From contig JAKLLB010000005.1 in NCBI GenBank assembly GCA_023150345.1, positions 28,570-92,569 of the forward strand: a stretch of DNA of 64,000 nt, read 5' to 3'. Source of the stretch: Aquabacterium sp. (GTDB lineage: Bacteria; Pseudomonadota; Gammaproteobacteria; Burkholderiales; Burkholderiaceae_C). Positions 30,637 through 33,600 of this stretch are shown piece by piece. How positions within the stretch are numbered: position 1 is the stretch's first letter; each line of letters begins with the position of its first letter. The notes beneath the pieces were generated by a model that did no database searches, was not told the DNA's origin, and was given only the letters and a program-made list of their open reading frames with translations. A program made the translations under genes and the position numbers.

Positions 30637-33600
30637 TCAGAGCAGCGTGCCGTTGTGGCGCATCAGCTCTTCGTCGAGCGTCCCACGCTGCGGCATCGCT
30701 GCCGCTACCGCTCCGGCGCTGGCACCGGCTGCCGACGTGTCGGCTGCGCCGGGGAGGGCTGCCGGTGCCGCGGCCAGCAGCTCATCCGCAGCGGGCAGAT
30801 CGGTCGCCTTGCGGGCCAGCCAGACGTCGGCCATTTCGTGCGTGGCACCATCGGCCGTGGTGTAGCTGCCCACCAGACCAACGGCGTTGCCGTTGTCGAT
30901 GCGGTCGCTGGCCGCATGCGCCAGGTTCAGTCCGGCGATGCCCAGGTCCACCAGTCCCTTGAGCTCGCCGACATCGGTGCGGCCGTCGTGATCGGCGTCG
31001 ACCCACACCTTCAGGTCGCCGAAGTGCGCGTCGCTCGCATTCACCACGCCGTCGCCGTTGCTGTCGAGCTCGGCCAGGGCATTGAAGCCATGACCGGCCC
31101 GGCGTCCATCGGCCATCGGCGTGACGGCTCCGAACAGCTCGCGGCCATCGTCGATCACGCCGTTGCCATTGCGGTCCATCGCCAGCAGACCGTCACCGCC
31201 TGCCGTCCAGCCCACTTCGCGGGACTGGCCGGTGCCGGTGAGGTCGAACCGGGCGCCCTGGCCGGCTGCGCTGGTGCTCACGCCGTTGCCGTCGAGGTCC
31301 AGCACCACCGGTGTCACGCTCAGCAGGGCCGACAGCTGCGCCGAGCTCATGGCCTGGATGTCGGCCGTCTCGAAGCCCTGCACCTGGCTGGTGGTCATGG
31401 CCGCGATGTCGGAGGTCTCCAGCGCCTGGATCTGCGTGGTGGTGAATGCCTGGATCTGCGCCGTCGTCAGGCCGCGGATGCCGGCGGTGGAGAACGCAGC
31501 AATGTCGCTGGTTTCCATCGCCGCGATCACGGCGGTCGACAGGCCGTTGATCTGTCCCGACGTCAGCGCGGCGAACTGCGTGGTTCCCATCGCATTGAAG
31601 TCGGTTGTACCCATCGCGGTGAGCTGGGCGCCCGTCAGAGCGACCAGATCACCGGTGGTGATGGCGCTGATCTGCGTGCTGGTCAGCGCGGCGATGTCAT
31701 CGGTGGCCATGGCGCGCCACTGCGAGCTGGTGAGCGCCGCGAGGTCCGAGCTGTCGAGCGCGGCCACCTGGGTGGTGGTCAAGGCCACCACCTGTGCTGT
31801 CGTCAGTGCGCCCAGTTGGGCCGACGTCAACGCCGCCAGGTCACTGGTGTCCATCGCGGCCATCTGCGCCGAGGTGAACGCGCGGATCTGAGCCGTGCTC
31901 AGTGCCGCCAGATCGGTCGTCTCCAGGTTGGCCACCTGCGTGGTGGTCAGGCTCGCCAGCTGCCCACTGGTCATGGCGGCGAACTGCGTGGTGGTGAACG
32001 CATCCAGGTCGGACGTTGTCAGCGCGCGCAGTTGCGTGCTGGTCAGCGCACTGACCTGTGCAGTCGTCAGGGCGACGAGCTGGGTGGTGCCCAGGCCATC
32101 GATCTGCGTGGTGGTCAGGCCACGCAGTTGTGCGCTGCCCAGTGCCGCCAGGTTGGTGGTGCCGATGTCGGCCAGGTCGCTGGCCGACAGGCCGCGCAGC
32201 TGGCCGCTCGTGAGGGCCGCCCACTGCGTGGTCGTCATGGCCACCAGTTCGTTGGTGGTCATCGCCTCGATCTGTGCACTGCCGAACGAGCGGATCTGTG
32301 CCGTCGACAGGGCGGCCAGGTCGCTGGTCTCGAGGTTGGCCACCTGCGTGGTCGTCAGCGCTGCCAGCTGGCCGGTCTTGAAGGCGGCAAACTGCGTGGT
32401 CGTGAAGGCGTCCAGGTCGCTGGTGCCCAGGGCACGCAGTTGGGCGCTGGTCAGGGCACCGACCTGAGCTGTGCTCAGTGCCACCATCTGGGTCGTGGAC
32501 AGCGCATCGACCTGCGCAGTGGTCAAGCCGGCGATCTGGGCGCTGGACAGCGCGGCGATCGTGGTCGTGCCCAGGTCAGCAAGATCCGTTGTCGAGATGC
32601 CGCGGATCTGGCCACTGGTGAGCGCACCGAATTGCGCGCTGGTCAGCGAGGCGAGCTGGCTCGTGCCCATTGCATCGATCGCCGCGGTGCCGAACGAGCG
32701 GATCTGAGCCGTCGACAGGGCCGCGAGGTCGCTGGTTTCGAGGTTGGCGACCTGGGTGGTGGTCAGGGCGGCGAGCTGGCCGGTCTTGAAGGCAGCGAAC
32801 TGCGTGGTCGTGAACGAGTCGAGGTCACTGGTGCCCATGCTGCGCAGCTGGGCGCTGTTGAGCGCACCGACCTGCCCCGTCGTCAGGGCCACGAGCTGCG
32901 TGGTCGACAGTGACTCGACCTGGGCCGTGGTCAGGCCGGCGATCTGGCCGGTGGACAGCGCGGCGATCTGGGTCGTGGTCAGGGCCGCCACGTCAGTGGT
33001 GTCGATGCCGCGGATCTGGCCGCTGCCCAACGCGGCGAGCTGCGTGGTCGACAGTGCGGCCAGCTCGGTGCTGGTCAGCGCTGCGATCTGGGCACTGGAG
33101 AAGGCGCGCAGCTGGGCGGTGGACAGGGCTGCCAGGTCGCTGGTCTCGAGGTTGGCCACCTGGGTGGTGGTCAGGGCGGCGAGCTGGCCGGTCTTGAAGG
33201 CGGCGAACTGGGTGGTGGTGAAGGCGTCGAGATCGCTGGTGCCCAGGGCGCGCAACTGCGCGCTGTTGAACGCAGCCACCTGGTTGGTGGCCAGGGCCAC
33301 CATCTGGGCGGTCGTCAGCGCATCGACCTGAGCGGTGGTCAGGCCTGCCACCTGTGCGGTGGACATGGCGGCCAGGGTCGTGGTGCCCAGCGCTGCCAGG
33401 TCGGTGGTGCCGATGGCGCGCATCTGGCCGCTGGTGAGCGCACCGAACTGCGTGGTGGTGAGTGCCGACAGCTGCGCAGTGGTCATCGCGTCGATGCCGG
33501 CGCTGGAGAAGGCGCGAACCTGTGCCGTCGACAATGCGGCCAGGTCGCTGGTCTCGAGGTTGGCCACCTGGGTGGTGGTCAGGGCGGCGAGCTGGCCGGT

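Follow-up and report, generated by a model that had tools for sequence, protein, structure and literature searches.

The stretch of DNA analysed here, in the following termed the window, comprises 64,000 nucleotides from the genome of an Aquabacterium sp. (GenBank assembly GCA_023150345.1, contig JAKLLB010000005.1, positions 28,570 to 92,569) and has a G+C content of 69%. Its minus strand contains two adjacent open reading frames (ORFs) with a G+C content at third codon positions (GC3) of 0.88, which encode the paralogous proteins A and B. In both, an array of ALTTAQ repeats is followed by a 166-residue module and by a tail of 59–70 residues (Table 1). The module is related to Neisseria FrpC's self-processing module (SPM). 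According to the literature, SPMs occur only in a subset of RTX proteins and cut a "highly specific" Asp-Pro bond (PMC7078468). In A and B, however, the module starts with Thr-Pro.

Two paralogous repeat proteins with a near-terminal SPM

The frame of A is open from position 35055 and its only early Met is codon 29 (MATTIPSK...); that of B is open from 30600, with a single early Met at codon 30 (MASTIPSK...). The N-termini shared by the two proteins, MATTIPSKTTTEIAAL... and MASTIPSKTTTEIAAF..., are unlike signal peptides as judged by eye. Pfam recognizes 44 stretches of the ALTTAQ repeat PF20080 in A (E=9.5e-272) and 33 in B (E=4.8e-178). The junction between repeats and module reads ...LLSV-T-P[VL]VLDLDG, the module ends in MADVW[LF], and the C-terminal regions of A and B are 61% identical across 228 residues. 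In a scan of all six frames of the window, the module motif was found in these two places only. The closest locus in the genome collection, 82% identical, stems from a metagenome-assembled genome of the Burkholderiaceae. As to composition, nearly every second residue of either protein is Ala, Thr or Leu (Thr alone 17.6% of A), each protein has one Cys, and Lys is very scarce (10 of 1472 residues in A, 4 of 1229 in B).

Translation of the minus strand confirmed the Thr-Pro pair that the initial annotation had reported in both paralogues (ACA CCG in A, ACG CCG in B), and in both the Thr aligns with Asp414, the cleavage residue of FrpC. The claim of a near-terminal module without subsequent RTX repeats was likewise borne out: only 59–70 residues separate it from the stop codon, and the GGxGxD motif has zero matches in A and in B, so that neither protein contains the tandem GGxGxDxxx nonapeptides that define RTX proteins.

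Table 1. Position of the genes and sequence features in the window.
Feature	Position	Strand	Remark
Gene A	ORF 30637..35055; likely coding 30637..34971	-	ALTTAQ-repeat protein with C-terminal Asp-less SPM-type module
Module of A	30817..31314	-	T1248-P1249 to D-V-W-L (residues 1410-1413), TPVVLDLDG...HEMADVWL; SPM fold (predicted)
Thr-Pro of A	31309..31314	-	T 31312-31314, P 31309-31311; FrpC Asp414-Pro415
First calcium loop of A, LDLDGNG	31282..31302	-	FrpC D419/D421/D423/G424
EF-hand-like loop of A, DRNGNGVIDDGRE	31138..31176	-	FrpC D462-E474
EF-hand-like loop of A, DSNGDGVVNASD	31030..31065	-	FrpC D499-D510
EF-hand-like loop of A, DADHDGRTDVGE	30964..30999	-	FrpC D521-E532
Last-strand motif of A, DVWL	30817..30828	-	FrpC 579-582, part of the "narrow port" round the scissile bond
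Tail of A	30640..30816	-	59 residues, Ala/Pro-rich, ends LDEELMRHNGTLL; fits clade-wide C-terminal motif; candidate secretion signal
C-terminal motif of A	30640-30680	-
Gene B	ORF 26911..30600; likely coding 26911..30513	-	Paralogue of A, same architecture
Module of B	27124..27621	-	T994-P995 to D-V-W-F (residues 1156-1159)
Thr-Pro of B	27616..27621	-	T 27619-27621, P 27616-27618
Last-strand motif of B, DVWF	27124-27135	-	Module end
Tail of B	26914..27123	-	70 residues, ends NLDVRESPLL
C-terminal motif of B	26914-26950	-
LssB-type ABC protein	21-1886	+	Candidate type I secretion gene; cut at window edge
HlyD adaptor	1883-3136	+	Candidate type I secretion gene
GGDEF-EAL protein	3165-5075	+	Between adaptor and TolC genes
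TolC-family protein	5063-6460	+	Candidate type I secretion gene
602-residue ORF	10665-12473	+	Heads sugar cluster
Sugar genes (PseB-like, DegT, GNAT, NeuB-like)	about 12068-22136
287-residue ORF	22165-23028	-
MarR	23283-23870
CLC channel	23895-25346
GT2-HAD gene	25343-26899	+	Convergent with B
flhB	35353-36519	+	Divergent from A
flhA	36610-38772	+	Divergent from A
flhF	38699-40366	+	Divergent from A
flgA to flgL	45204-56628		FlgL-like ORF 55081-56628

When the C-terminal 235 residues of A were compared with the PDB, they matched 6sjw (E=8.1e-41) and 6sjx (E=5.6e-40), with query residues 12-178 aligned to residues 1-170 of the chain and thus to the FrpC SPM from end to end; the matches ranked next were marginal EF-hand proteins. 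An AlphaFold model based on 111 aligned sequences has a predicted local distance difference test (pLDDT) score of 95–98 over the module. With this model Foldseek retrieved only 6sjx and 6sjw from the PDB (E ~1e-17, target-normalised template modelling scores of 0.82 and 0.81), all remaining entries having E > 0.6. In close relatives, this region is assigned to PF26745 "SPM" by precomputed Pfam annotation. Our Pfam and NCBIfam scans of the module itself returned weak EF-hand and XopAW matches only, because the scanned copy of Pfam did not contain PF26745.

The module shares ~47% identity with the FrpC SPM. All four EF-hand-like calcium loops are present in A and B, including D456 at the first site (FrpC numbering is used throughout), as are the W451/W519 pair, Pro415, D579 and most residues that surround the cleavage site. 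Judged by E value, predicted fold and calcium-site residues, the module of A and B is a true homologue of the FrpC SPM, as the initial annotation had proposed, and its specific fold sets it apart from a generic EF-hand module. The differences from FrpC concern the cleavage site and the context: Asp is replaced by Thr before the Pro (Ser in related modules), D478 is absent, and the last strand reads DVW[FL] instead of DLLL. While the FrpC module is internal and followed by RTX repeats, that of A and B lies downstream of an ALTTAQ array near the C-terminus of a protein without RTX. The clip-and-link class (FrpC/ApxIVA) is characterized by calcium-induced cleavage and Asp-Lys cross-linking. Of its sequence hallmarks, neither the Asp-Pro bond, nor the complete D478 and D579 pair, nor an internal position with RTX repeats downstream is found in A or B. 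The homologues tested so far, all of which cleave, are close relatives of FrpC.

A class of SPMs without the cleavage-site Asp

The initial annotation implied that Thr-Pro was peculiar to the two paralogues, which did not hold. A search of 90% identity clusters seeded with the C-terminus of A gave 303 matches; the motif is present in 101 of the 120 that were listed, with Thr before Pro in 53 of them, Ser in 48 and Asp in none. Among 1.84 billion representatives, an all-against-all HMMER search produced 23,890 matches with E<=1e-3 and 2,001 with E<=1e-30. From the A-seeded, FrpC-seeded and HMMER searches, 399 module instances were aligned and clustered with the column before Pro left out. The clade that includes the window's modules (n=151) has Thr in 81, Ser in 69 and Cys in one, but never Asp or Ala. 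The FrpC cluster (n=73) has Asp in 65, Ser in seven and Ile in one. Three further clusters comprise modules of giant proteins and show mixed residues: Ala (19), Ser (19) and Thr (7) in giant-protein cluster A (n=45), Ser (18), Ala (4), Gln (1) and Thr (1) in cluster B (n=24), and Pro (31), Ala (10), Leu (10) and others in cluster C (n=63). In sister groups with the DVWF strand, this position is occupied by Pro, Gly or Tyr. The single Cys-Pro of the window's clade is found at residue 278 of P0312, where DVWF is kept.

Eighty genome loci, mostly of Burkholderiales, formed an independent set that contained 75 Ser/Thr modules (Thr 47, Ser 28), most of them from this order, versus four Asp-Pro motif matches. 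The genera include Aquabacterium, Roseateles, Ideonella, Rubrivivax, Pseudaquabacterium, Duganella and Rugamonas, and a few loci stem from Geobacter, Thiobaca and Sulfuricurvum. Tandem module paralogues are common, with three in L008 and two each in L009, L010, L036, L058 and L062. With Ser or Thr in 150 of the 151 clade modules and in 75 of 75 such modules from genome loci, the non-Asp state, as read from these alignments, is a property of the clade that is common across the SPM family and no quirk of two paralogues. The initial annotation had also considered a generic EF-hand-like module in which Thr-Pro is the common state; the second part of this description applies in that Thr-Pro-type junctions are common, whereas the first does not fit the specific SPM fold. 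We also considered that the Ser/Thr might simply belong to the last ALTTAQ repeat. This was rejected, as it stands at a fixed distance from an "AL" in a manner that deviates from the repeat pattern, and Ser-Pro together with DVWF also occurs in proteins without ALTTAQ repeats.

Some residues around the junction also differ between the two classes. In the FrpC structure, W451, L475, G477, G491 and D579-L582 make up a "narrow port" that surrounds the scissile D414-P415 bond, and a transient fifth calcium ion is bound by the carbonyls of D414 and L580 and the carboxylates of D478 and D579 (PMC7078468). Processing is strongly reduced in the D478A variant (PMC7078468), and cleavage is abolished by D414A (PMC7846742). 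In the window's clade W451, L475, G477 and G491 are 99–100% conserved, Pro415 is invariant (100%), and D579 is found in 99% of the modules versus 41% of the Asp-Pro modules. At position 478, in contrast, A has Ala and B has Thr; in the clade Ser, Ala, Val and Thr prevail there, and Asp is not among the commonest residues; the carboxylate pair of the fifth calcium site is thus incomplete, with D579 kept and D478 gone. Positions 580-582 are V-W-F/L in the clade versus L-L-L in FrpC. Within the supercluster that holds the FrpC and window modules, Trp occupies position 581 in 171 of 177 non-Asp modules but in only one of 77 Asp modules, and with the window's clade excluded the non-Asp figure is 22 of 27. 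Likewise, DVW[FL] is present in 72 of the 75 Thr/Ser modules from genome loci and in none of the four Asp-Pro motif matches. The switch recurs in several clusters, among them the FrpC cluster, in which six Ser-Pro members all have DVWF or DVWL, and one cluster divided into five Asp and five Ser modules. Because of this recurrence and the known physical contact, the alignments indicate that the coupling between the residue before Pro and position 581 is likely real. Position 575 is His in 83% of the window's clade, while the cleaving class most often has Gly (45%).

The two classes also differ in their place within proteins. A survey of 82 representative proteins of at least 1000 residues located Asp-Pro modules at a median of 17% of the length, ~700 residues from the N-terminus, with RTX motifs downstream in 85%; non-Asp modules were at a median of 87%, ~540 residues from the C-terminus, with RTX motifs downstream in 12%. 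In all 16 proteins that possess both kinds, every Asp module is N-terminal to every non-Asp module. Giant proteins of ~1,300–7,700 residues have an Asp-Pro SPM near the N-terminus and, in addition, one or two non-Asp SPM-like modules near the C-terminus (P0243, P0251, P0259, P0260, P0265, P0270, P0294 and others). In P0265 (4686 residues), an Asp-Pro module at 708 is followed by tandem-95 repeats, an RTX block at ~3840-4100, Ser-Pro modules at 4103 and 4335, and the C-terminus. The architecture of A and B, with repeats, one non-Asp module and a tail, resembles this plan reduced to a minimum. The C-terminal modules of such giant RTX or tandem-repeat type I secretion proteins resemble those of A and B in having Ser, Ala, Thr or Pro before the Pro and in lying at most a few hundred residues from the C-terminus, downstream of all else, in some cases together with an N-proximal Asp-Pro module. 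They differ in that most belong to a sequence group of their own, without the ELFG loop and with DAAL or DVFL as the last strand. None of them appears to have been studied so far.

Could the module be a decayed relic of a once-cleaving SPM with no role of its own? The loss of the catalytic Asp and of D478 would agree with decay. However, in a clade whose members share as little as 41% and at most 98% identity, D419, D462, E474, D499 and W451 are conserved in 100%, D510, D521 and W519 in 99%, E532 in 98% and D456 in 96% of the modules. The residue before Pro and DVWF are tightly constrained, and the module keeps a fixed place ~225–245 residues from the C-terminus in most modules from genome loci. 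We therefore regard decay as highly improbable.

Candidate secretion genes and other neighbours

Candidate genes of a type I secretion system (T1SS), coding for an LssB-type ABC protein, an HlyD adaptor and a TolC-family protein, are located at the start of the window. A tblastn comparison of the window proteins with 53 related loci, each 12 kb or longer, located T1SS ABC and HlyD genes within 10 kb of the module gene in 14, and directly downstream of it in six. Orthologues of the window's own T1SS genes (ABC protein 63–65% identical) are within 10 kb of a module gene in L031, L037 and L073, and the gene tables of L004 and L006 list the same T1SS and sugar neighbours. The GGDEF-EAL gene between the adaptor and TolC genes takes the place held by LapD-type regulators in Lap adhesin systems; the best NCBIfam match of its product is DibA-like, with the LapD model far under its cut-off. 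The ORFs scanned in the window included no LapG-like protease.

The tails that follow DVWF in the window's clade are Ala/Pro-rich, 55–147 residues long, and conserved at their end (e.g., LDDELLRNGQPLL). After the Ala/Pro-rich linker, the consensus is [DE][DE]ELLRxxxPL[ILV]-COOH, and both window proteins contain this motif. Giant SPM-bearing proteins have a different C-terminal signal, ...AAFGA...DYFAA. From its sequence, the clade motif may represent a distinct class of T1SS signal.

The genes flhB, flhA and flhF adjoin A on its upstream side, which raises the question of export through the flagellar apparatus. This would be supported by the adjacency of flhB to an ALTTAQ-SPM gene in seven of the 53 loci (L008, L009, L010, L014, L025, L026, and L047). 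The linkage of T1SS genes, however, is more frequent and spans more distant taxa, and the fold stems from T1SS substrates, so that we rank flagellar export below type I secretion. The window also contains flgA to flgL; the FlgL-like ORF aside, it showed no flagellin gene.

Sugar genes form a second kind of neighbourhood. PseB or DegT homologues were found in 8–11 of the 53 loci, and module genes have PseB-like, DegT, NeuB, FdtA, GT2 and methyltransferase genes as neighbours in the window as well as in L002, L003, L004, L006, L016, L035, L048, L060 and L062. Genes for nonulosonic acids or amino sugars (PseB-like, DegT, NeuB-like, GNAT, epimerase/ATP-grasp) accompany ALTTAQ-SPM genes in the window, L002, L016, L035, L048, L060 and L062, a hint of possible glycosylation of the Thr-rich repeat proteins; some of the genomes with this combination have no flagellar genes nearby. 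The GT2-HAD gene convergent with B was considered as a protein glycosyltransferase, but its product resembles glucosyl-3-phosphoglycerate synthase/phosphatase of a compatible-solute pathway and was not counted for glycosylation. In principle, the Ser/Thr at the hinge between repeats and module could itself be a modification site, for instance for O-glycosylation, served by the sugar genes that adjoin module genes in the window and nine other loci and in keeping with the high Thr content of A. The sugar-gene link concerns, however, the whole Thr-rich protein or possibly flagellin rather than this residue, Ser-Pro modules with DVWF also exist without ALTTAQ repeats, and the covariation with a strand inside the fold argues for an intramolecular contact. 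A modification site is thus quite unlikely in our estimation.

Two further ORFs have no Pfam or NCBIfam match. The 287-residue ORF is conserved in the vicinity of module genes in nine of the 53 loci; in L002, L004, L005 and L037 it is their immediate downstream neighbour. The 602-residue ORF at the head of the sugar cluster has a coding-like GC3 of 0.86.

A probable non-cleaving folding unit and its alternatives

The initial annotation offered two possibilities, a non-cleaving calcium-folding domain or a different chemistry, and this is still the correct frame. In our view, it is rather probable that the module of A and B is a non-cleaving, calcium-driven C-terminal folding unit of a repeat protein secreted by a T1SS. 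A and B would be exported C-terminus first, most likely by a T1SS, a route that they would share with FrpC. Upon meeting extracellular calcium, the module would load its four EF-hand-like sites and fold, and could then act as a calcium-dependent folding nucleus or ratchet, the role that RTX beta-rolls have in classical T1SS substrates. RTX repeats undergo calcium-driven folding outside the cell, next to the C-terminal secretion signal (summarised in PMC7078468). The job proposed here for the module is the same as that of RTX beta-roll blocks with a C-terminal cap, as in CyaA and the serralysins. Fold and sequence are unrelated, however, and the role has been demonstrated for RTX, while for the module of A and B it is deduced. 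With Ser/Thr in place of the Asp nucleophile, D478 gone and DVWF/L instead of DLLL as the last strand, the junction between repeats and module would be stable rather than scissile. The Trp of DVWF might pack on Pro415 and the Ser/Thr hydroxyl might bond D579, locking the repeats to the module.

Several points weigh against this reading. The T1SS genes of the window (21..6460) are 20–25 kb away from A and B, and most of the 53 related loci have no T1SS within 10 kb. Since the literature searched contains no experiment on any non-Asp module, we can only infer the absence of cleavage. All samples of the family were seeded with the window module or FrpC, so that the class frequencies are biased, and both these and the covariation counts are raw figures that ignore phylogeny. 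Moreover, Pro415, D579 and the port residues are conserved at least as strongly as in the cleaving class, and the ~28 switches between Thr and Ser contrast with zero to Ala, which is one nucleotide away. The constraint on the residue before Pro, Pro415, D579 and the port exceeds what simple loss of function needs, and non-cleavage incompletely explains the strict Ser/Thr(/Cys) rule and the high conservation of Pro415, D579 and His575 (83%).

For these reasons, a processing reaction based on the hydroxyl group is kept as a minority hypothesis. Calcium-induced folding would strain the junction, and a backbone carbonyl would be attacked by the hydroxyl. This could be an N-to-O acyl shift involving the preceding bond, or the residue's own carbonyl could be the target; the ester could be hydrolysed or passed to another nucleophile, in what would be an ester version of clip-and-link. 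All residues found before Pro in the 151 clade modules (Ser/Thr and one Cys) are nucleophiles, and a parsimony reconstruction on a neighbour-joining tree of the clade gave, besides the Thr/Ser switches, one change to Cys and otherwise none. The retained port, the invariant Pro415, D579 and the His at position 575 would also suit such a mechanism. In known N-to-O shift systems, however, the nucleophile follows the scissile bond and is held in a constrained pocket, whereas the residue preceding Ser/Thr-Pro is variable and outside the fold; attack on the own carbonyl would require a four-membered lactone. The sister DVWF modules with Pro, Gly or Tyr, together with a related group in which Ala is as frequent as Ser, indicate that the fold needs no hydroxyl at this position. 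In addition, the fifth calcium site, which enhances strain, has lost D478, and the FrpC D414A variant indicates that strain alone fails to cleave the bond. Self-processing through the hydroxyl is therefore unlikely. It is improbable to a similar extent or more that [S/T]-Pro...DVWF constitutes a second chemical class of calcium-triggered self-processing domains, in which an ester or lactone intermediate (a thiol-derived one in P0312) replaces the aspartic anhydride. If it did, the repeat array would be released or covalently attached to a surface acceptor.

The domain assignment as such is not new, because PF26745 and PF20080 already group these proteins. Our literature searches returned no paper on non-Asp modules and none on ALTTAQ proteins. 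What is new is the recognition of the non-Asp modules as a distinct class that is widespread, under constraint and marked by a covarying DVWF strand, that is placed at the C-terminal end, and that also occurs where RTX repeats are missing. The Asp is absent from a large part of the SPM family, and many of the proteins concerned also lack RTX. Non-Asp modules are numerous in giant secreted proteins of other bacteria as well, and the class is recognizable by its location at the secretion end and the signature [S/T]-P plus DVWF. The SPM is the basis of the NeissLock protein-ligation tools. Together, the two classes provide a clean, testable pair for asking what renders the Asp-Pro bond scissile, and the module described here, as a natural and presumably non-cleaving scaffold, might be of use to engineers as a control or as a point of departure. 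It is also a candidate calcium-folding unit that could replace RTX repeats in type I secretion.

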